DNA of 64,000 nucleotides from Anaerolineae bacterium. GTDB lineage: Bacteria > Chloroflexota > Anaerolineae > JAADDB01. The DNA lies in NCBI GenBank assembly GCA_015486845.1, contig WFQU01000020.1, forward strand, positions 13,214 through 77,213, in the 5' to 3' direction. Below, piece by piece: positions 1 to 62,977 of the stretch. Numbering within the stretch: position 1 is the first letter of the stretch; each line of letters opens with the position of its first letter. The translations under genes were made by a program, and so were the position numbers. The notes beneath the pieces were generated by a model. That model ran no database searches. It saw only the letters and a program-made list of their open reading frames with translations, and had not been told where the DNA came from.

Positions 1-90
1 CGTCTGCAAAATCGCCCTACGGCGATTAGCATGCAACCTGCGCAGGCAGGTTTCGCAGTTGTAGCAGCGATTTCTAATCGCCGAGCTGCG
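1..90 (-). repeat. Dispersed repeat family R1, partial copy truncated at window edge
   Basis: Reverse complement of 1-90 reads GGCGATTAGAAATCGCTGCTACAAC...AACCTGCCTGCGCAGGTTGCATGCTAATCGCCGTAGGGCGATTTTGCAGACG. This is near-identical to 45388-45470 and 62531-62615. It contains several short palindromes: GCGATT/AATCGC, CCTGCGCAGG and CGCCGTAGGGCG. Confidence 0.7.
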
Positions 91-132
91 TTGATCTGCG
101 TCCCATTTTTATTTTCAGAGGAGATTGGCATC

Positions 133-7314: not shown

Positions 7315-9287
<1,973 letters not shown>

Positions 9288-9325
9288 TGAGATCTGTGTA
9301 ACGACTTAGTTCTGATCAAACAAAA

Positions 9326-9421
9326 CGCTAATTACGCAGATTTCACGCCGACAAATCAGAAAGGATTAGCGAAAATCAGCATTTTTTCGCATCCTATTGC
9401 GGGACAAGCTGAGTAGTCACC
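9326..9421 (-). repeat. R3 element copy A (conserved ~95-nt upstream module), oriented toward rmd-gmd-manB
   Basis: On the minus strand it reads GGTGACTACTCAGCTTGTCCCGCAATAGGATGCG...GCTGATTTTCGCTAATCCTTTCTGATTTGTCGGCGTG. It is block-wise identical to copies at 12144-12241, 28971-29070, 62896-62977 and 45241-45338. Confidence 0.7.
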
Positions 9422-10839: not shown

Positions 10840-12219
<1,380 letters not shown>

Positions 12220-12241
<22 letters not shown>

Positions 12242-13279: not shown

Positions 13280-13437
13280 ACAAAAAAAGCTCCCCCGAGA
13301 GGAGCATGTCTTTTAGAATGCGCCTCCCTTATCTTTCAAGCAGTGTTGCCTGCCGGAATTGGCACCATGAACGCTTTGTTGCTGCGCTCCGGTTGCCGGA
13401 GGATCAACGGGCCGGTCCCTCCCCTCCTCTTGATAAG
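13280..13437 (-). promoter_or_regulatory. SAM-I (S-box) riboswitch with intrinsic terminator
   Basis: The minus strand reads CUCUUAUCAAGAGGAGGGGAGGGACCGGCCCGUUGAUCCUCCGGCAACC...GGUGCCAAUUCC...UGAAAGAUAAGGGAGG. This matches the S-box conserved blocks (P1 CUCUUAUC/GAUAAG, GGAGGGA, GGCCCG, GAUGA, GGCAACC, GGUGC-AAUUCC). It is followed by the hairpin GCUCC-ccgaga-GGAGC and UUUUUUU about 70 nt before the kinase start. Confidence 0.85.
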
Positions 13438-13671
13438 AGTGCTTCTCTTATTTATGTAATTTCACAAACACAATCAATATACAGAGTTTTCCTCGACTTG
13501 TCAAAAAAACATAAGGCTGGGCTACGTCGGTGCCATCGCAATAATTCCTTCATAATGCACTATTACACAGCAGCCTGAATGGATCTGCGGTTGTTAAGGG
13601 CTCGGCGCATCACGGATGCGGCTATCTCTGTTTAGAAGTCCAACCTCTGCGAGAAGTTAAACTTCATCAAG

Positions 13672-24689: not shown

Positions 24690-25140
24690 TCCGAAAATAA
24701 GCTTCTCTGGAGGGTAGCCGAGGGCAAAGCCCTCGGCTACCCTCTCCTCCGAAAAATAGAACGCTAACCAACGGCGTTCTCCGCCCGACCGCACGGGGAT
24801 CAAATCCCCGTGCTACATCGCCAAGAAGCCCCCTGAAAGGGGGATAGTGTTGAACAGCCGCTTGGCAGCGAATGCTACCTTGACGCACCCCGCCGGCGTA
24901 CCGGAATCGAGGCTTTAGCCGGTGGTAGCCCCACCAACCCATCTAAAGGCTTGACGCCAGCTGCATTATCTTCATCCGCTGTGGTGCGCCGCAGGCCCAT
25001 GCCGACTCCTCCGAAAATAGAACGCTGAAAATAAGACCTCTCCCCTGGCTTACCGCCCAAAGGGGCAGCAAGCCTGCCCCTCCCCGTATCGGGGAGGGGC
25101 AAAAGCTAAGCGCAGCGCAGCTTGGGGGAGAGGTCTCCCC
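24690..25140 (+). repeat. R2 mosaic repeat, copy 1 (multi-hairpin modules)
   Basis: About 450 nt that match the reverse complement of 54755-55395 module by module. Shared modules include GGCGTTCTCCGCCCGACCGCACGGGGATCAAATCCCCGTG, GGCTTTAGCCGG...CCCATCTAAAGGC and GACCTCTCCCC...CCCTCCCCGTATCGGGGAGGG...GGGGAGAGGTC. Confidence 0.75.
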
Positions 25141-28891: not shown

Positions 28892-28970
28892 ACCTGAACT
28901 TGTGACTTACCGGCGCCCATGACGCCATGCATTATCCAGAACCACGGTAACGATCCATCTCTGGTCAAAT

Positions 28971-29070
28971 AGAACACGGATTCACGAAAACAAGTCGGAA
29001 AGGATTAGCGAAAATCAGCGTTTATCTGCGCCATCTGCGTCCTATTGTTGGGAAGACCAAGTAGTCACGA
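28971..29070 (-). repeat. R3 element copy C (between murJ and recF, antisense to both)
   Basis: Contains GACTACTTGGTCTTCCCAACAATAGGACGCA...GCTGATTTTCGCTAATCCTTTCCGACTTGT. It is the only copy not co-oriented with a downstream gene. Confidence 0.65.
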
Positions 29071-29215: not shown

Positions 29216-29300
29216 AGTAACTACTCAGCCCTGCGGCGATTGGCAGGCAACCTGCACAGGCAGGTTCAGCAACTATTGGCAGCGATTTCTAATCGCCGGA
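29216..29300 (-). repeat. R1 repeat, partial copy b
   Basis: The reverse complement reads GGCGATTAGAAATCGCTGCCAATAGTTGCTGAACCTGCCTGTGCAGGTTGCCTGCCAATCGCCGCAGGGCTGAGTAGTTACT. Confidence 0.7.
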
Positions 29301-29338
29301 TGCGGTAAGCTGAGCAGTTACCGGAGAAAAAGAGAATC

Positions 29339-31525: not shown

Positions 31526-31932
31526 CGATAAAAACGATGTAACCCGCGGCCCATAGTCATTTTTTCTTTCCCCCTGGCTATGTTATACTGTCTTGGAATG
31601 TTGTTTCATTCCTTCAGGACAGTACCTTATCAACAGAATTCGTGGCTACTCAGCTTTCCTAACCAGAAAACGCAACTAAACGCTTGTTTCTCGCAGATCT
31701 CTTCTGTTCATCTACGGGCATCTGCGTGAAATCTACATAATCAGCGTTCTTTTCGGCCAGGGCTAAGTCGTCATCGAAATGCTTGTACGTTAGACAAAAT
31801 TGAACGCGAGGGCTGTAGAGAAGGCCAAGACACAAAGCGAGAATTATGCAATCCTTTGCATCTCAGTCTGGCAGCCACTTTGCGTCGCAGCCTTGTTATT
31901 TCCGACTCAACCAAGATCAGGAGCAAATAAAC

Positions 31933-37390: not shown

Positions 37391-37457
37391 GGATCGCGAG
37401 GACAGGTTTCGCAACTGTGGCCGCTATTTCCAATCGCCGGACGGAGTAGACCGAGCC
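37391..37457 (-). repeat. R1 repeat, partial copy e
   Basis: The reverse complement reads CCGGCGATTGGAAATAGCGGCCACAGTTGCGAAACCTGTCCTCGCGATCC, with GGAGTAGAC adjacent. Confidence 0.5.
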
Positions 37458-37464
37458 GTTACGC

Positions 37465-45211: not shown

Positions 45212-45240
45212 TTACCTTCTCCTCCGAAAACAAAAATGGG

Positions 45241-45338
45241 ACGCAGATCAACGCAGTCTGCGCACACAGATAAAAAACAATGGTCAAAAAATTAGTAACA
45301 GATTCTCCCCTGAAAATAGCTCCTATTGCGCCGGAGTA
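45241..45338 (-). repeat. R3 element copy E, immediately upstream of argD/lysJ
   Basis: The minus strand reads CTACTCCGGCGCAATAGGAGC...TTGTTTTTTATCTGTGTGCGCAGACTGCGTTGATCTGCGTCCC, followed by the RBS TTTTCGGAGGAG and ATG. Confidence 0.65.
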
Positions 45339-45387
45339 GAGGCTTTAGCCGGCGATAGACCCACCAGCCCATCTAAAGGCTGCCTCG

Positions 45388-45560
45388 CCCGGCGATTAGA
45401 AATCGCTGCTACAACTTCGAAACCTGCCTGCGCAGGTTGCATGCTAATCACCGTAGGGCGATTTGGCAGATGTTGCCGTGACTTTTAGTCGCTGGGCCAT
45501 CAGCCGTCATCAACTGGCTCCATTCCTATCCATGTAGCATGACTTCTCGAGCCTGCGACC
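45388..45560 (+). repeat. R1 repeat, full-length copy c
   Basis: CCGGCGATTAGAAATCGCTGCTACAACTTCGAAACCTGCCTGCGCAGGTTGCATGCTAATCACCGTAGGGCGATTTGGCAGATGTTGCCGTGACTTTTAGTCGCTGGGCCATCAGCCGTCATCAAC...GCATGACTTCTCGAGCC. It is about 90% identical to 62531-62700. Confidence 0.8.
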
Positions 45561-45707: not shown

Positions 45708-46196
45708 GTGGGAAACCAATTACAGTCCAGTGCCCAAAAGGTACAAAGCGCTTTGCAAGCGTTAGGCTTTCCGTTTTCGGTCGTCGAGCTATCTGCCTCG
45801 ACACGCACGGCCAGCGAGGCTGCCAGTGCGGTGGGGTGCGGGGTGGCTCAGATCGCCAAGTCGCTGGTTTTTCGCGGCAAACACAGTCATAAGCCGGTTT
45901 TGGTCATCGTTAGTGGTGTCAATAGAGTAGACGAAAAAAAGTTGCGCCAGTTGATTGGCGAGCCGGTAGGCAAAGCAAAAGCCGATTTCGTGCGGGAACA
46001 AACGGGCTTTGCCATTGGCGGTGTGCCGCCGGCGGGCCACGTCCGGCCGATAGAAACCTGGATCGACGAGGATTTGTTGGCGCAAGAGGAAATTTGGGCG
46101 GCAGCAGGAACACCACATGCCCTCTTTTCTTTGTCTCCGGCTGATTTGTTGCGTTTGACCGACGGCACGGTGGTGGATATCAAGGAAGAACAGTGA
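45708..46196 (+). CDS. YbaK/ProX-family aminoacyl-tRNA deacylase
   Basis: The YbaK domain pattern VGCGVAQIAKSLVFRG...PVLVIVSG...FAIGGVPP. GTG start with a GAAGGAGG Shine-Dalgarno. Confidence 0.75.
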   Translation: MGNQLQSSAQKVQSALQALGFPFSVVELSASTRTASEAASAVGCGVAQIAKSLVFRGKHSHKPVLVIVSGVNRVDEKKLRQLIGEPVGKAKADFVREQTGFAIGGVPPAGHVRPIETWIDEDLLAQEEIWAAAGTPHALFSLSPADLLRLTDGTVVDIKEEQ

Positions 46197-46224
46197 CTCC
46201 TTAGCCGTTCTAACCACAACCGCA

Positions 46225-46300
46225 AGATGCTGATTGTTGTTAGTCTTTTCTTGATTTATCTGCGTGTAGTTTGCGTTCTATTGGACCAAGGCTGAACAGT
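46225..46300 (+). repeat. R3 element copy G (3' half), immediately upstream of 2H phosphoesterase gene
   Basis: GCTGATTGTTGTTAGTCTTTTCTTGATTTATCTGCGTGTAGTTTGCGTTCTATTGG matches the 3' blocks of R3-A and R3-B (GCTGATTTTCGCTAATCCTTTCTGATTTGTCTGCGTGGAACCTGCGTTCTATA). Confidence 0.6.
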
Positions 46301-46340
46301 TACGAAGAGCATAACATTGCCATTTGAGGGAGTACCTTAC

Positions 46341-46895
46341 ATGTCATTCGCCATTGAATTGTTCTTCGACGAGACTTTGACGGTTGCCGTGCGTCAGATA
46401 TGGAAAGCTCTGGCCGATGCTGGCGTGAGTTCCCAAATGTTAGACGGCGGCTATCGCCCCCATATTTCTTTGGGTATCTGTGACGAATTAGATGTCGAAA
46501 GCTCCGCCATGGCAATATCGGCCCCGGCGATGCCGCTTTTGCCTGTAACGCTTTCATACTTTGGCATCTTTCACCGCCGGCCGGGAGTAATCTTTCTCGG
46601 CGGAACAGCCACACGTGCTTTGTTGGCGCAGCATGCGCTGTTACAAGCACGATGCCACAATGTTGCTAAAGGATGTTGGCCGGAATACGAAGTGGACGTC
46701 TGGGTTCCACATTGCACGTTGGCCGCTGATCTGCAAGCGGCACAAGTTGAGCAAGCAGTGCGCGTTTGCCGGCAAGCTGTTTTACCGCTGCACGGCTATT
46801 TTCAGGCTATTGGCATTTCGGAAGTCTCGTTGACCAGTCATCGCCTACTTCATTTGTTCCCATTAGATTCCGCCACCGCGGTCGAACCGGACTGA
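46341..46895 (+). CDS. 2H phosphoesterase superfamily protein (LigT-like 2'-5' RNA ligase/cyclic phosphodiesterase)
   Basis: Two H-x-T/S-x motifs (PHISLG and PHCTLA) at the appropriate spacing. Confidence 0.65.
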   Translation: MSFAIELFFDETLTVAVRQIWKALADAGVSSQMLDGGYRPHISLGICDELDVESSAMAISAPAMPLLPVTLSYFGIFHRRPGVIFLGGTATRALLAQHALLQARCHNVAKGCWPEYEVDVWVPHCTLAADLQAAQVEQAVRVCRQAVLPLHGYFQAIGISEVSLTSHRLLHLFPLDSATAVEPD

Positions 46896-46977
46896 ACACG
46901 TGGTCTGGCGACGTTGCGATAAATTTTAATGTCTGCGTATGAGATAGGTGTTCACCATCGCCTATCTCGTACGTAGA

Positions 46978-47022
46978 TTGGAAATTGCTGCCGCAGTGGT
47001 AAAACCTGCCTGCGTAGGCTGT
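46978..47022 (+). repeat. R1 repeat, short partial copy f
   Basis: GATTGGAAATTGCTGCCGCAGTGGTAAAACCTGCCTGCGTAGGCTG against the R1 consensus GATTAGAAATCGCTGC..ACAAC..GAAACCTGCCTGCGCAGGTTGC. Confidence 0.45.
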
Positions 47023-47065
47023 GGCTCAGTCGCTGCAGGATGATTTTACAGATGCTGCCGTTTTG

Positions 47066-53342: not shown

Positions 53343-53370
53343 GCTGAATTCTCCTTCGAAAATCAATAGG

Positions 53371-53410
53371 ACACAGATCAACACAGGCTGCGCACGCAGA
53401 TAAAAAAACA
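53371..53410 (-). repeat. R3 3'-block (copy F) upstream of gatB
   Basis: The minus strand reads TTGTTTTTTTATCTGCGTGCGCAGCCTGTGTTGATCTGTGTCC. It aligns almost base-for-base with the segment upstream of argD/lysJ (TTGTTTTTTATCTGTGTGCGCAGACTGCGTTGATCTGCGTCC). Confidence 0.6.
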
Positions 53411-54754: not shown

Positions 54755-55395
54755 TAGCTGCCCATGACGCGATGGGCATGCATCATGGGCCTGTAGCCTG
54801 CCTGTGCGGGCACGCAGACAGGCGCACCACAGCGGCCGAAAATGATGCGGCTGGTGTCAAGCCTTTAGTTAGGCGGGTTGGTGGGCCTACCACCGGCTAA
54901 AGCCTCAATGCCGGTGCAGCGGCGGGGCGCGTCAAGGTAACGTCCTCTGCCAAGAGGCTGCTTAACACCAGCCCCTTTCTAAGGGGCTTATCATTTACGT
55001 AGCACGGGGATTTGCCCCCCGTGCGCTCGGGCGGAGAACGCCGTCGATTAGAAGTTCAACTTTTTGAAGGGGGCCTGATTTTTTAGATGCTCCGCGCCTT
55101 AGCGCCACTGCGTCAACTTATTTTGAGAGGAGTTTGTCATTGCGAGGCCCGACAGGGCCGTGGCAATCTTCCTTACTGGCGTTGGAGATTGCTTGACCAA
55201 AAAGAGGGTCACACTGTCGCTTCGCTCGCAATGACATGACTGATTTGAAGGCGTTGCGTCAGCTATATTTAGGGGAGACCCCTCCTCTAAGCTGCGCTAC
55301 GCTTAGCTTTTTCCCCTCCCCGATACGGGGAGGGGAAGGCTTGCCGCCCCTTTAGGCGGCAAGCCAGGGGAGAGGTCTTATTTTCAGAGAAGGCA
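54755..55395 (-). repeat. R2 mosaic repeat, copy 2 (inverted relative to copy 1; carries extra ~250-nt internal segment)
   Basis: The reverse complement aligns with 24760-25140. The module order differs, and one hairpin shows compensatory substitutions (CCCCCTgaaaAGGGGG against GCCCCTTagaaAAGGGGC). Confidence 0.75.
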
Positions 55396-55460
55396 CCGCC
55401 GGGCGACCACAAGGATTTGCTCTTGCTTTTTGAATAGATGCGATTTATGTCGTTGAACTA

Positions 55461-57224
55461 TCACGGCCCCTGTGGAGGGCCTAACGTAGCAATTTGCGTT
55501 GGCTGCGGTGTGACGGTCGGCTGCGGTGAGTGGGTGTTGGTTGGCTGCGGCGTGTTGCTCGGCCAGGGTGTGCTGGTTGGCTGTGGCGTGGCGGTCGGCT
55601 CCGGCCAGGGTGTGCTGGTTGGCTGCGGTGTGGCGGTCGGCTCCGGCCAGGGTGTGCTGGTTGGCTGCGGTGTGGCGGTCGGCTCCGGCCAGGGTGTGCT
55701 GGTTGGCTGCGGTGTGACGGTCGGTTCCGACCAAGGCGTGTTGGTTGGCCACGGCGTGTCAGTCGGTTCCGGCCAAGGCGTGTTGGTTGGCCACGGTGTG
55801 TCAGTCGGTTCCGGCCAAGGCGTGCTGGTTGGCCACGGCGTGTCAGTTGGTTCCGGCCGGCGCGTGCTGGTTGGCCACGGTGTGGCGGTCGGCTCCGGCC
55901 GGCGCGTGCTGGTTGGCCACGGTGTGGCGGTCGGCTCCGGCCGGCGCGTGCTGGTTGGCCACGGTGTGGCGGTCGGCTCCGGCCAGAGTGTGCTGGTTGG
56001 CTGCGGTGTGGCGGTCGGTTCCGGCCAAGGCGTGCTGGTTGGCCACAGTGTGGCGGTCGGCTCCGGCCAGGGCATGCTGGTTGGCCACGGTGTGTCAGTT
56101 GGTTCCGGCCGGCGCGTGCTGGTTGGCCACGGCGTGTCAGTCGGTTCCGGCCGGCGCGTGTTGGTTGGCTGCGATGTGGCGGTCGGTCCCGGCCAGGGCG
56201 TGTTGGTTGGCCACGGCGTGGCGGTTGGTTGCGGGCTTACTAATTCCCTTCGGGATGTAGGCTGACGAGTGGGTACAACAACAGGCAGCGCTGTATCAGT
56301 TGGATAGATAGTATGCAACAGTGTCGGCGTTGCTATGAATGTAGGCGTTGGTGTTGGCCTTGGCATGCGTGTAGGCGTTAGCGTTGACCTTGGCGTGCAT
56401 GTAGGCGTTGGCGTTGACCTTGGCGTGCATGTAGGCGTTGGCGTTGGCGTGCCGGTAGATAATTCAGCCAATAACATTGTCGTGCGAGCTAATGTAACTT
56501 GAACCGGTTTCTGATCTGGCGGCGGCACTTCTCGAGAGAGACGCGTTAGTTGGCGTTGTGCTGTTTGCAATGTTTTACCGAATTGTTCTGTGGCGGCCAT
56601 TCGTTGTGGTACCGGTACAGCAGCCAATGCAGCTTGGGCTGATTGTACTGCTTGCCAATAATCGTCCAGCAATCGTGGATCGGGATGGGCATGTTGGTTA
56701 GCATAAGCGTATTCATCAAGGCGCCGTTGCGCTAACTGCGCGTAAACGACAGAGTGATCTTGGGGGGGGCGTGTTATCAGCGTGATGCGCTCAAGGGGAC
56801 GTTTTAGCTCGTATAGCGGTTGGCCGGGCATGCTGTGCATGGCAGCAGCATGTATACTAAGCCCGATGGCTAACAACAACACAGTGGTTATTAATGTTGG
56901 GGCTAAACGTGTCAAGACGCCTTTGGGCTGCCAAAAAAGTGCTCGCCATCGGGCTAAAGGCGATTGTTGCTCTTTTTGTAAGGCAGCATGCATGCGCGCT
57001 CGGGCTTTGTGCGTAGCTTGCGCTGAAGGTCGAGGTTGTTGAACAAGCAATAAGCGTCGAGCCGTTTCAACATAAGGCGCAACAGCTTTTTGTTCCTCAG
57101 CGGATAACGCTGTGTCTTGCTTAGGATCATAACCTCGCACATCTTGTTGTAGATGTGCGAGGGCCTTTTCTAAGATGTTTTCGTCCACTTCTGCGCTATT
57201 TAACCTCTCTATGCCACACGACAC
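55461..57224 (-). CDS. Putative anti-sigma factor with single TM helix and ~330-aa extracytoplasmic Pro/Thr-rich tandem-repeat domain
   Basis: It lies immediately downstream of, and overlaps, the ECF sigma gene. The N-terminal cytoplasmic domain is followed by a TM segment ([18 protein letters not shown]), then about 17 near-identical 14-aa units of [28 protein letters not shown]. Confidence 0.6.
55510..56230. repeat. Tandem 42-bp repeat array (~17 units) within anti-sigma CDS
   Basis: The unit is GGCTGCGGTGTGGCGGTCGGCTCCGGCCAGGGTGTGCTGGTT, with point variants. It generates spurious ORFs in several frames on both strands. A second short array of 33-bp units lies at about 56330-56460. Confidence 0.9.
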
Positions 57225-57873: not shown

Positions 57874-58632
57874 AGTTCTATGATATACTTTGGCCCCGTT
57901 CCCTGCAATTCCTGTAATTTCAAATTTACCCCGGCGCAGAAACAGATTCGAGAATCAGGCAGTTGGAAACCGCATCTATATTTGCTGAGCGTTACGCTTA
58001 GAAGGCGGCTAATAGTCTGCACCGGTGGACTGGACAGGCCTATCGCTCCGATTTTCTGTTGCTCGGCGTGAAAAAGTCTATTACCGGGCTGATACATTTA
58101 GCATTACTGTTGCTATTCATGTCCCCTATCTATTTGTGACTACTCAGCGATTCTAAGTCATAGAACCCAGATGACGCATATACCTAATAAATGCTGATTT
58201 TCTCTGATCTTGTCTGATTTATGGACAGCTGTGTAAGATCTGTGTTCTATTTGACCACGGCTGAGTAAATTTCTTTGTTTACTGCCCGAACAGGTCATCA
58301 GTATAGCGTACTAACTACACCAACGTGCGAATATGTTGAAAGGTTACGGTGAATTAATTCTCGGTAACTCCTGCGCAAAATCCTTGTTGGTTCGATATTC
58401 AGGTCGGTGCAGATCGGCCGGCGTCGCGACAGGACGAATAACTCAATTGCGTGCGAATTGGAACTAATTCTCAAGATATTGCATAACCTTTTCTGGCTCA
58501 CTTGCGTTGATTTGATTGGAAAGGTTATGACATGACTATTTTCGAAAGCGGTTTTGTCTCATGAGCGAAAAAGAAAATGCATTGTCAAACTGTTTTCCTG
58601 GTAAACAAATTCTTTCTGCGGAGGTATAAGAC

Positions 58633-60138
58633 ATGATGAAGAAACTATGGCGGTATGTCGTGATAGTAGCTGTATTGGCTATGGTGGGAAGCGCATTACC
58701 TATGATGAGCTTTGCAGCTATCAATGGTAATACAGCACCGGCTGTCTTACAGGGCGTCATCGAGAGCATGCCCGACGCGGGTAACATCGGCGTATGGCAG
58801 GTCAGCAATGTCCCGGTGCTGGTTGACGCATCGACGATTATCAGTGACCGAGCTGGAGCGCCCGACGTGGGCAGTTCGGTCAAGGTGCAAGGATTCCCGG
58901 ACGGGAATGGTGGTATTACGGCTAAGCGTATCAAAGTCGAAACCATGATGCCCGATGCTCAGTTAACGGGTGTTCTGGATGCTTTTGATGCCAATGGTGT
59001 ACTTGTTGCTGGCGTTGACATTGCTCGAGACGCTAATACGTTGGTTGTGGGCGCATTGCATGCCGACCAGTATGTTAAAGCACTTTTCGAAGTAGACCAA
59101 GCCGGGCAACGGATGGCAGTTCAGATAATCTCTGCGGAGGCTGAATACACGCCTGCAGTGGTTCACTTTGCAGGGCTTATTCAAACGGTGCCAGCTGGAC
59201 GTGCAGGAGATTGGATCATTGCCGGTCAGCATGTGCAAGTAACTGCGTCTACTTGGATGAATGAGTACAAAGGATTGGCACAGGTCGGCGCTATGGCGGC
59301 TGTGCAAGGCATACGACAGGCTAATGGTGTGTTGCTCGCCAGCAAGATTACCGTGCTGAAAGCGTTGAATGAGAATATGCCGAATCCTATTCATGCCTAC
59401 ACTGAATTTCAGGGTATTGTTGATGAACTGCCTGCGGGCACGTTTCTTGGAGCATGGCAAGTTAGTGGGCGTACAGTGAAAGTGACAGCATCTACCTACG
59501 TCGCAGGCGCGATAGAGGTTGGTGACCAGGTACTCGTGAAAGGGTATGTTTTGGCTGATGGTTCCGTTACGGCTGACCGCATTATAGCACTTGGTAGGGA
59601 AAACGGTACGCCAAGCGACCCAGGTAACGGTCACATGCCTACCGTGACGCCGACGCCGTATAACCCGGGCAGCGGCTGGATGCCGACAGCGACTCCGACG
59701 GCTTCTAACCCGGGCAGCGGTCACATGCCTACCGTAACACCGACGCCGTACAACCCGGGCAGCGGCTGGATGCCAACAGCGACTCCGACGGCTTCTAACC
59801 CGGGCAGCGGTCACATGCCTACCGTAACACCGACGCCGTACAACCCGGGCAGCGGCTGGATGCCCACGGCGACTCCGACGGCTTCTAACCCGGGCAGTGG
59901 TCACATGCCTACCGTGACGCCGACACCGTACAACCCGAGCAGTGGTCAGATGCCGACAGCGACTCCGACGGCTTCTAACCCGGGCAGCGGTCAGATGCCG
60001 ACGGCGACTCCGACGGCTTCTAACCCGGGCAGCGGTCAGATGCCGACAGCGACTCCGACGGCTTCTAACCCGGGCAGCGGTCAGATGCCCACGGCGACTC
60101 CCACACCTCATCATTATGGACCTTTCGGAAACGGTTGA
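58633..60138 (+). CDS. Secreted repeat protein: signal peptide, 3-4 internal ~90-aa beta-rich repeats (DUF5666-like) and C-terminal 15-aa PT/NPGSG tandem repeats
   Basis: Signal peptide MMKKLWRYVVIVAVLAMVGSALPMMSFA. Internal repeats have the form GxWQVSxxxVxVxAST...VGxxVxVxGxxxxDGSxTAxRI. The C-terminus carries about 10 units of PTATPTASNPGSGQM/PTVTPTPYNPGSGWM. Confidence 0.6.
   Translation: MMKKLWRYVVIVAVLAMVGSALPMMSFAAINGNTAPAVLQGVIESMPDAGNIGVWQVSNVPVLVDASTIISDRAGAPDVGSSVKVQGFPDGNGGITAKRIKVETMMPDAQLTGVLDAFDANGVLVAGVDIARDANTLVVGALHADQYVKALFEVDQAGQRMAVQIISAEAEYTPAVVHFAGLIQTVPAGRAGDWIIAGQHVQVTASTWMNEYKGLAQVGAMAAVQGIRQANGVLLASKITVLKALNENMPNPIHAYTEFQGIVDELPAGTFLGAWQVSGRTVKVTASTYVAGAIEVGDQVLVKGYVLADGSVTADRIIALGRENGTPSDPGNGHMPTVTPTPYNPGSGWMPTATPTASNPGSGHMPTVTPTPYNPGSGWMPTATPTASNPGSGHMPTVTPTPYNPGSGWMPTATPTASNPGSGHMPTVTPTPYNPSSGQMPTATPTASNPGSGQMPTATPTASNPGSGQMPTATPTASNPGSGQMPTATPTPHHYGPFGNG
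59630..60105. repeat. Tandem 45-bp repeat array within secreted-protein CDS
   Basis: The unit is CCGACGGCGACTCCGACGGCTTCTAACCCGGGCAGCGGTCAGATG, alternating with a variant. It produces the spurious antisense ORF 58963-60207. Confidence 0.9.
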
Positions 60139-60242
60139 AGGGTATTGATTAGTTAATGTAATGTTTCGCAGAATGTTTGGAAGGCTTCTCCTGAGCTTTC
60201 CAAACATTCAAAATATGCTAATGAGAAAAGAGCGTACCGATT

Positions 60243-60929: not shown

Positions 60930-61214
60930 AACTCAAGGAGCAAGGGGTGTAAGGCGCGTTACAGCGGCTGAAAATCTCTTGACAAGATTGGGGATCGCAG
61001 GCTTGAGAAGGAATGCGACACTGATGTCCCCTTGCCAGCATACCAGATCGCTTAAACAGCGACCAGTGTATTTTAATGCGTTTTACCGTCTTAGCGTTGG
61101 TGTGCGCTGGATAGTGGCCCATAGCATGAATCAGGTTTAGTAACAGGGGCCTTCACATTGCCCGAATAATATTTCTGAATCAGCATTTATCGGCGTGCAT
61201 CAGCGTTCTATTTT

Positions 61215-62459: not shown

Positions 62460-62530
62460 GGTCCTTTTTCCCTTTGATGTCCTATCACGCATACGCTAAA
62501 GATAATACAGGGGAGGGCATTCTGCCTTGT

Positions 62531-62700
62531 CCGACGATTAGAAATCGCTGCCACAACTGCAAGACCTGCCTGCGCAGGTTGCCTGTTAATCGCCGTAGGG
62601 CGATTTTGTAGATGTTGCCGTGACTTTTAGTCACTGGGCCCATCAGCCGTCATCAACCAACCCCATGCCTATCCCCGTAGCATGACTTCTCAAGCTTACC
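62531..62700 (+). repeat. R1 repeat, full-length copy d
   Basis: CCGACGATTAGAAATCGCTGCCACAACTGCAAGACCTGCCTGCGCAGGTTGCCTGTTAATCGCCGTAGGGCGATTTTGTAGATGTTGCCGTGACTTTTAGTCACTGGGCCCATCAGCCGTCATCAACC...GCATGACTTCTCAAGC. Confidence 0.8.
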
Positions 62701-62860: not shown

Positions 62861-62895
62861 AATTGTAATGGTGTAGCCCCGGTTAACATAGAATA

Positions 62896-62977
62896 CTGAT
62901 GACACAGATAAATCAGAAAAGATCAGCGAAAATCCACGTTACCTGTGTCTTATAGTTAGAAGGGGTGAGTAGCCACC
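62896..62977 (-). repeat. R3 element copy D
   Basis: The minus strand reads GGTGGCTACTCACCCCTTCTAACTATAAGACACAGG...GGATTTTCGCTGATCTTTTCTGATTTATCTGTGTCATCAG. Confidence 0.6.

Follow-up and report, generated by a model that had tools for sequence, protein, structure and literature searches.

The question raised by this locus is why one sequence module should recur upstream of unrelated housekeeping genes in an uncultured member of the Anaerolineae (Chloroflexota). In a 64-kb stretch of DNA from this bacterium (hereafter the window), a preliminary description reported seven copies of such a module, R3, and proposed that it acts as a promoter, UP element, transcription-factor site or leader RNA, that it is a genome-wide regulon signature, or that it is a promoter-carrying miniature mobile element. 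We conclude with high confidence that R3 is a family of MITEs, i.e., non-coding DNA transposons, of 111-135 bp. The structure of the element, its target duplications, its multicopy dispersal and its insertion polymorphism relative to related genomes are directly visible in the DNA. R3 is an ordinary selfish repeat rather than a regulon signature.

Results

Inventory and boundaries of R3

An nhmmer profile of R3 was built from the window copies and from two copies of other MAGs (L001 and L002). This profile detected seven full-length copies in the window with E-values of 2e-31 to 2e-22 (Table 1), and no further match below 1e-4 was obtained in the same scan. An eighth copy from the same organism is located just outside the window, in the adjoining 10 kb. 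Pairwise identity among copies ranges from 59 to 77%. This divergence, together with the lack of any perfect duplication in the window, indicates that the copies are old and provides no case for current activity in this lineage.

The conserved blocks were present where the preliminary description had quoted them, and far beyond chance: the 29-nt core yielded two matches at three mismatches or fewer against 0 expected, and the block CTTCCYAACAATAGGACGCA two against 0.01 expected. Five of the seven reported copies (A, B, C, E and G) are true members of the family. The remaining two (D and F) had no profile match even at E < 10 and have only the heptamer arm CTGYGTTGATCTGYGTCC in common with R3, and two other copies (H and I) had been missed. 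The limits assigned to the five true copies fell 20-32 nt short on the side of the downstream gene, and because of these truncated boundaries one terminal inverted repeat was overlooked (the 3' repeat in four copies and the 5' repeat in copy E). The length of ~95 nt given for the module is correspondingly lower than that of the profile-defined copies (111-135 nt).

Table 1. Positions of R3 copies, related repeats and other features. Positions refer to the window unless a contig handle is given; distances run from the end of the element to the downstream start codon.
Feature	Position	Strand	Length (nt)	Limits in preliminary description	Flanking 8-mers	Context and distance
R3 copy A	9298-9420	-	123	9326-9421	ATGGATCG/ACAGATCT, 5/8 matching	presumed 5' UTR of rmd-gmd-manB; ATG at 9272, 25 nt
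R3 copy B	12124-12240	-	117	12144-12241	GAAAAA(A)G: AGAAAAAG/GAAAAAAG	between pfkB and ahcY; 18 nt
R3 copy C	28947-29068	-	122	28971-29070	CGTTGTTC/CGTGGTTC, 7/8	antisense, between murJ and recF-like gene
R3 copy H (new)	31642-31774	+	133		5/8	between ROK-family gene and ychF; true ychF start, 158 nt
R3 copy E	46193-46303	+	111	46225-46300	GAAGAACA/GAAGAGCA, 7/8	5' of 2H-phosphoesterase gene; 13 nt (TTG) or 37 nt (ATG)
R3 copy I (new)	58136-58270	+	~135, 3' boundary uncertain			divergent region, ECF sigma-factor gene/DUF5666 gene; 362 nt
R3 copy G	62865-62976	-	112	62896-62977	AATTCATG/AATTCATA, 7/8	M20 peptidase stop 29 nt before its start; next start codon 405 nt beyond
R3, eighth copy	L059 2083-2195					between pdxS and pdxT
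R3-like copy, diverged	L011 9851-9970	+				~30 nt upstream of ychF
Sibling MITE	29217-29321	+	105		CGGAGATA/CGGAGAAA	R3 terminal inverted repeats GTAACTACTCAGC/GTAACTGCTCAGC, unrelated interior; 17 nt to recF-like GTG
Sibling-MITE interior	3-86, 37396-37462, 45387-45470, 46976-47052, 62532-62612					mostly without terminal repeats
Composite element	L008 4892-5372		481		6/8	metK-rmd spacer; ends GTAACTACCGAGC/GTAACTGTTCCGA
Heptamer block	86-124	+				arm running into Shine-Dalgarno of usp
Heptamer arm (copy D)	45235-45277	-		45241-45338		non-R3, without terminal repeats; runs into Shine-Dalgarno of class-III aminotransferase gene; shared block including Shine-Dalgarno 45218-45277
Heptamer arm (copy F)	53365-53407	-		53371-53410		non-R3, with Shine-Dalgarno block, upstream of gatB
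Heptamer-arm fragment	61172-61213	-				AATAGAACGCTGATGCACGCCGATAAATGCTGAT, right after stop of 414-aa hypothetical gene
SAM (S-box) riboswitch	13326-13439	-				heads pfkB-ahcY-metK operon
Promoter-like site	13504-13476	-				TTGACA-17-TATATT, precedes SAM riboswitch
Long inverted repeats	24764-25140 and 54869-55387					~30 kb apart
Whalefall-1 RNA, weak match	25035-25135	both
Tandem repeat, 42 nt	55434-56321					in frame; 15 overlapping registers
Tandem repeat, 45 nt	59528-60152					in frame; 10 registers; inside DUF5666 protein gene

No R3 copy holds a spanning ORF, and neighbouring genes intrude into the element by only 21 nt in copy B and 4 nt in copy E. In the former case, the last residues of PfkB are replaced by the element-encoded VITQSS*, which confirms the earlier observation that the upstream kinase takes its last six codons and its stop from this copy. 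In the latter, the stop codon of a YbaK-like gene is provided by the first bases (GTGA) of the element. The best named matches of the AhcY, YchF and M20 peptidase proteins of the window were Anaerolineae/Chloroflexota MAGs, and proteins identical to those of the window were found in the ENA contig ERZ23495671 scaffold_74 and in the NCBI assembly GCA_027008065.1. The window has a G+C content of 53% and, with genes taken from a rough ORF-based set, is ~86% coding; several repeat families crowd its intergenic DNA.

Anatomy and fold of the element

Every copy is bounded by imperfect 13-nt terminal inverted repeats (5'-GTRAYTRYTCAGC ... GCTGARYARTTAC-3'), directly inside which lie the inverted blocks AATAGGACGC and GCGTTCTATT. 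CGCWGAT heptamers make up the left arm of the interior, and the right arm consists of the complementary ATCWGCG heptamers. Read in the orientation used previously, the left half is composed of GTGACTACTCAGC, a short spacer, AACAATAGGACGC and one to three CGCWGAT heptamers. After the centre, GATTTTCGCTRATCYTTTCTGATTT, come one to three ATCWGCG heptamers, and the right end then consists of GCGTTCTATT, TGACCAGG and GCTGARYARTTAC, in that order.

All copies fold end-to-end into one long imperfect hairpin, whose stability is modestly above that of shuffled sequence (z = -0.5 to -3.6). The consensus fold of ten copies computed with RNAalifold reached -3.28 kcal/mol, with a double change in only 2 of 13 pairs, and a search against Rfam gave no match for R3 at the gathering threshold or at E <= 1. 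With no Rfam match and almost no covariation, the proposed leader-RNA role is not borne out.

Evidence for transposition

The flanks of the elements present 8-bp target-site duplications: across eight elements, 49 of 64 flank positions match, a result reached by none of 20000 random sets. A related copy on the metagenome contig L028 is surrounded by a perfect duplication (TATTTGGT). We also considered a 7-bp duplication with one extra element base, which was dropped since the eighth base matches in copies C and E and in a sibling MITE described below. Empty sites were then identified in relatives. At the position of copy B, contigs L004-L006 (AhcY 94% identical) present a precise empty site that reads GAGCCAGAGAAAAAAGGAGAGAATTGATGAC, and their pfkB and ahcY genes overlap (TGATG) without the element; the window reads GAGCCAAAGAAAAAG and GAAAAAAGGAGAAAATTGATGAC on either side of the 117-nt element. 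The sibling MITE likewise has a precise empty site in the relative L011, reading CACCGGAGAAAAAGG. Terminal inverted repeats, 8-bp duplications and precise empty sites together demonstrate that R3 transposed. Of the structural properties of MITEs, the family shows all except an autonomous partner, none of which was detected in the ~400 kb of loci scanned (see below).

Related copies of R3 were found in two other Anaerolineae MAGs, whose contigs were the only ones recovered when a genome collection was scanned with a 27-nt degenerate core, and in the metagenome contigs L028 and L031. A first scan of metagenomes returned no match, and neither did BLAST searches of the copies against plasmid and phage collections. 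Two short public contigs (L014 and L061) begin or break at or within R3 copies, as expected for a high-copy repeat. Other classes of elements were considered for R3, namely attC sites, IS200/IS605-type elements and REPs, and were dropped because of the target duplications and the paired terminal repeats. IS200/IS605-type elements insert next to TTAC.

Sibling and composite elements

The sibling MITE carries the terminal inverted repeats of R3 around an unrelated interior and is flanked by a duplication of the same length (Table 1). If a common transposase recognizes the ends, two different cargoes would be expected to have both their ends and their duplication length in common, as seen here.

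The interior of the sibling MITE (GCCCTRCGGCGATT...GCAGCGATTTCTAATCGCC) was observed at five more places in the window, where it adjoins other repeat modules (e.g., at 45331-45552 and 62522-62695). The intergenic DNA of the window is a mosaic of repeat modules. In a relative whose AhcY is 88% identical (L008), we observed a composite element with similar ends; it lies in the metK-rmd spacer, where the window has copy A at another position. Several other features were also noted. Two long inverted repeats comprise segments of 183 nt (81% complementary) and 116 nt (92% complementary), and one of the two regions includes weak matches to the Whalefall-1 RNA, one per strand, which score 26 and 22 bits and thus stay below the gathering score of 37. 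Long in-frame tandem repeats are present at two loci, and it is within the 42-nt array that the ENA contig of this organism stops.

A candidate transposase

A transposase encoded elsewhere would bind both ends of R3 and insert the element into a staggered 8-bp cut, the repair of which would generate the 8-bp target-site duplication. The most likely mobilizer is an enzyme of the IS66 family, a lead and not a proof, as this assignment draws only on the GTAA/GTGA-type ends and on the length of the duplication. IS66 elements are 2-3 kb long and encode transposase genes, whereas R3 copies are 111-135 bp long and non-coding, and no cognate IS66 copy was found in the DNA that we scanned. The ends of IS66 elements are terminal inverted repeats starting with GTAAGCG and are flanked by 8-bp direct repeats (PMC11946415), and the end of ISPsk01 reads GTAAGCGTCCGGCG... 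(PMC12888890). R3 is likewise flanked by 8-bp repeats; its right ends read GTAAC(T/C)G(T/C)TCAG and its left ends GTGAC; compared by eye, about 10 of 14 positions are alike between the R3 end and that of ISPsk01. The copy on L031 ends in GTAAGCGTTCAGTCCC and contains an exact GTAAGCGTTCAG, which is of the GTAAGCG type. In contrast to the 20-30 bp described for IS66, the conservation of R3 ends extends over only 13-16 nt.

No autonomous element, i.e., a transposase gene between R3 ends, was detected in ~400 kb of retrieved loci, and no transposase gene was detected in the window or in the flanking DNA that was retrieved. A scan of viral contigs for the end GTAASCGTTCAGTCCC gave 16 matches, approximately the number expected by chance, none of which had a partner end or similarity to R3.

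Orientation and proximity to start codons

We then considered whether retained copies might act in cis on the adjacent gene. Seven R3 copies of this organism lie between co-directional genes and are informative. Six of them (A, B, E, G, H and the L059 copy) follow the sense of these genes, and only C runs antisense; copy I lies in a divergent region and is uninformative. The bias is not established (two-sided p = 0.125, not significant), and the copies in the two other MAGs are one sense and one antisense. Five copies had been placed 20-50 nt before a ribosome-binding site, and only three of these (A, B and E, measured to the start codon) are true members, the other two being D and F. The ends of A, B and the sibling MITE lie 17-25 nt before a start codon and that of E 13-37 nt. 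Under a crude random-placement null, the chance that an insertion ends in sense orientation no more than 30 nt from a start is P = 0.056, and at least three such cases out of eight insertions yield p ~0.008 if E is counted; this test is post hoc, relies on rough gene calls and weakens if the start of E's gene is the ATG at 46341.

The gene-sense orientation of R3 and its closeness to starts are suggestive only, although they are not predicted by a purely neutral transposon without added selection or target preference. Survivorship is the simplest reading of the proximity to starts, since tightly spaced or overlapping genes leave few tolerated sites other than those just upstream of the ribosome-binding site. 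The surviving copies would then be intergenic or 3'-terminal because selection removed other insertions. A real target preference for start-proximal sites may also contribute. Copies located in 5' UTRs or between genes of an operon would be co-transcribed, forming a long imperfect hairpin in the mRNA.

It is conceivable, though rather unlikely, that retained copies have been exapted, such that a hairpin in a 5' UTR or an intercistronic region would alter mRNA processing, stability or translation. This would be an addition to the MITE explanation and not a replacement for it. The orientation counts and start distances given above would fit such a role, as would the end-to-end hairpin fold of every copy, and Correia and ERIC elements offer a precedent (PMC10969869). 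In addition, the relative L011 (YchF 91% identical) presents a diverged R3-like copy ~30 nt upstream of ychF. Its orthology with copy H finds no support, as it shows 56% identity and is no closer to H than to other copies; judging from these sequences, ychF seems to have received the two insertions independently in its upstream region. Against exaptation, the orientation bias is not significant and the distance test has the weaknesses described above. Moreover, the hairpins exceed shuffled sequence in stability by a modest margin only and show almost no compensatory change, the identity of 59-77% is like that of decaying repeats, and where genes are separated by short spacers, an insertion is hardly tolerated except just before the ribosome-binding site.

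Heptamer arrays without terminal repeats

The palindromic heptamers of R3 also occur outside of the element. The blocks at usp, the aminotransferase gene and gatB have ~45 nt in common (CTGYGTTGATCTGYGTCCYATT...TTTTCRRAGGAGA), Shine-Dalgarno included, and the ribosome-binding sites of these three genes appear to be part of the repeat arm or to adjoin it. We also observed a heptamer-arm fragment after the stop codon of a hypothetical gene (Table 1), with weak profile matches on both strands (E about 1e-3). Using a looser core pattern, we recovered 28 metagenome contigs (L015-L042) of 35-62% G+C that present palindromic CGC[T/A/G]GAT heptamer arrays around the centre GCTGATTTTCGCTGATCTTTT. These arrays are all intergenic based on a rough ORF-based gene set, are sometimes in tandem, and most are without R3 ends. 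Up to four copies were found in one spacer (L027), and the metagenome Ga0256833 presented ten copies over six contigs. Most of these contigs represent heptamer hairpins of other organisms, and they are of little use for orientation statistics on R3.

R3 looks like a carrier, bounded by terminal repeats, of this more widespread hairpin module. A further reading would make the CGCWGAT hairpin a functional module of its own, an RNA or DNA hairpin recognized by a protein or an RNase and kept in gene-sense orientation in 5' UTRs and operon spacers by bacteria of several phyla, with R3 as the IS66-like-ended vehicle that spreads it; we regard this as improbable.

Regulatory readings

Several R3 copies precede genes and are oriented toward them, and a -35-like TTGACC is often present in the 3' part of the element. 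Both observations would agree with a shared promoter, UP element or transcription-factor module defining a housekeeping regulon, but we consider this reading very improbable. No sigma-70-like -35/-10 pair with a spacing of 16-18 nt was found inside any of the seven copies and, reading the sequences, no -10 box stands at a workable spacing from TTGACC in any of them. Copies A and B are both downstream of conserved promoter elements. Relatives that lack copy A retain a -10 box (GGGTATAAT) which, in the window, precedes this copy by ~20 nt; given this position, copy A is probably part of the 5' UTR. Copy H likewise follows a TGTTATACT motif, as read from the sequence. Copy B is inside the SAM-riboswitch-controlled pfkB-ahcY-metK operon, and in relatives without this copy ahcY is expressed from genes that overlap. 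Furthermore, copy C is antisense between two genes, copy G and the L059 copy are found just past stop codons and hundreds of nucleotides from the next start, and R3 is missing from orthologous sites in close relatives. The suggestion of a promoter-carrying miniature mobile element was thus right as to the mobile element, given the repeats, duplications and empty sites, and finds no support as to the promoter.

The pfkB-ahcY-metK operon is a methyl-cycle operon. The SAM riboswitch at its head scored 89 bits, and the promoter-like site that precedes it is near-consensus.

Discussion

Our results indicate that R3 is a MITE family, and several known families of bacterial repeats can be compared to it. 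Correia elements, the MITEs of Neisseria, resemble R3 in being non-coding, multicopy and mostly intergenic with terminal inverted repeats. They duplicate the dinucleotide TA. Unlike R3, they have demonstrated sigma-70-like promoters and an IHF site, whereas R3 has an 8-bp duplication, no promoter-like sites in our scan and an unrelated sequence. Correia elements are ~100-200 bp long, form hairpins and are often found directly upstream of genes with which they are co-transcribed (PMC10969869). The ERIC/IRU elements of Enterobacteriaceae are imperfect palindromes of ~127 bp; they lie in intergenic DNA that is transcribed, and their effects on the mRNA depend on their orientation (PMC10969869). 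They are similar to R3 in size, in overall hairpin and in transcribed intergenic placement, with no sequence similarity; R3 differs from ERIC in that its target duplications are clear and its sites are empty in close relatives, a sign of relatively recent transposition. The MITEs of cyanobacteria (Nezha, Chunjie and others) are high-copy elements in the repeat-rich intergenic DNA of free-living bacteria (PMC10969869, PMC3184786). R3 is also high-copy, but the host phylum differs and no sequence relationship was seen.

Palindromic, intergenic and sometimes clustered sequences are also typical of REP, BIME and REPIN repeats, and are found in the heptamer arrays without terminal repeats beside R3. 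The interior of R3 is itself a palindromic array of short heptamers, and arrays of this kind without terminal repeats occur at four loci of the window (Table 1) and in many metagenome contigs; yet REPs are stem-loops of 20-40 bp that bear a GTAG or CGTC tag and are associated with RAYT genes (PMC3733652), whereas R3 is 111-135 bp long with 13-nt terminal repeats common to unrelated cargo and with 8-bp duplications, so that the spread of R3 as an extragenic palindrome by a RAYT (tyrosine transposase), or by another mechanism without terminal inverted repeats, is hardly credible. For R3 this reading is contradicted by the target duplications; for the heptamer arrays that lack terminal repeats it may still hold.

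MITEs as such are well known, and R3 constitutes an undescribed family of them. We found no description matching R3 and no paper with its core sequence in the literature, and a 2024 review of MITEs mentions neither Chloroflexi nor IS66-derived MITEs. The present analysis documents a MITE family in Chloroflexota and provides a testable link to IS66-type transposition. For genome annotation, R3 blocks of ~120 bp should be masked as MITEs and not treated as promoters, leaders or regulon motifs. R3 also explains contig breaks and altered C-termini, such as the VITQSS* of PfkB and the stop of the YbaK-like gene. Finally, if the trends in orientation and start proximity hold genome-wide, R3 would offer a natural experiment on which hairpin insertions are tolerated or used in 5' UTRs and operon junctions.
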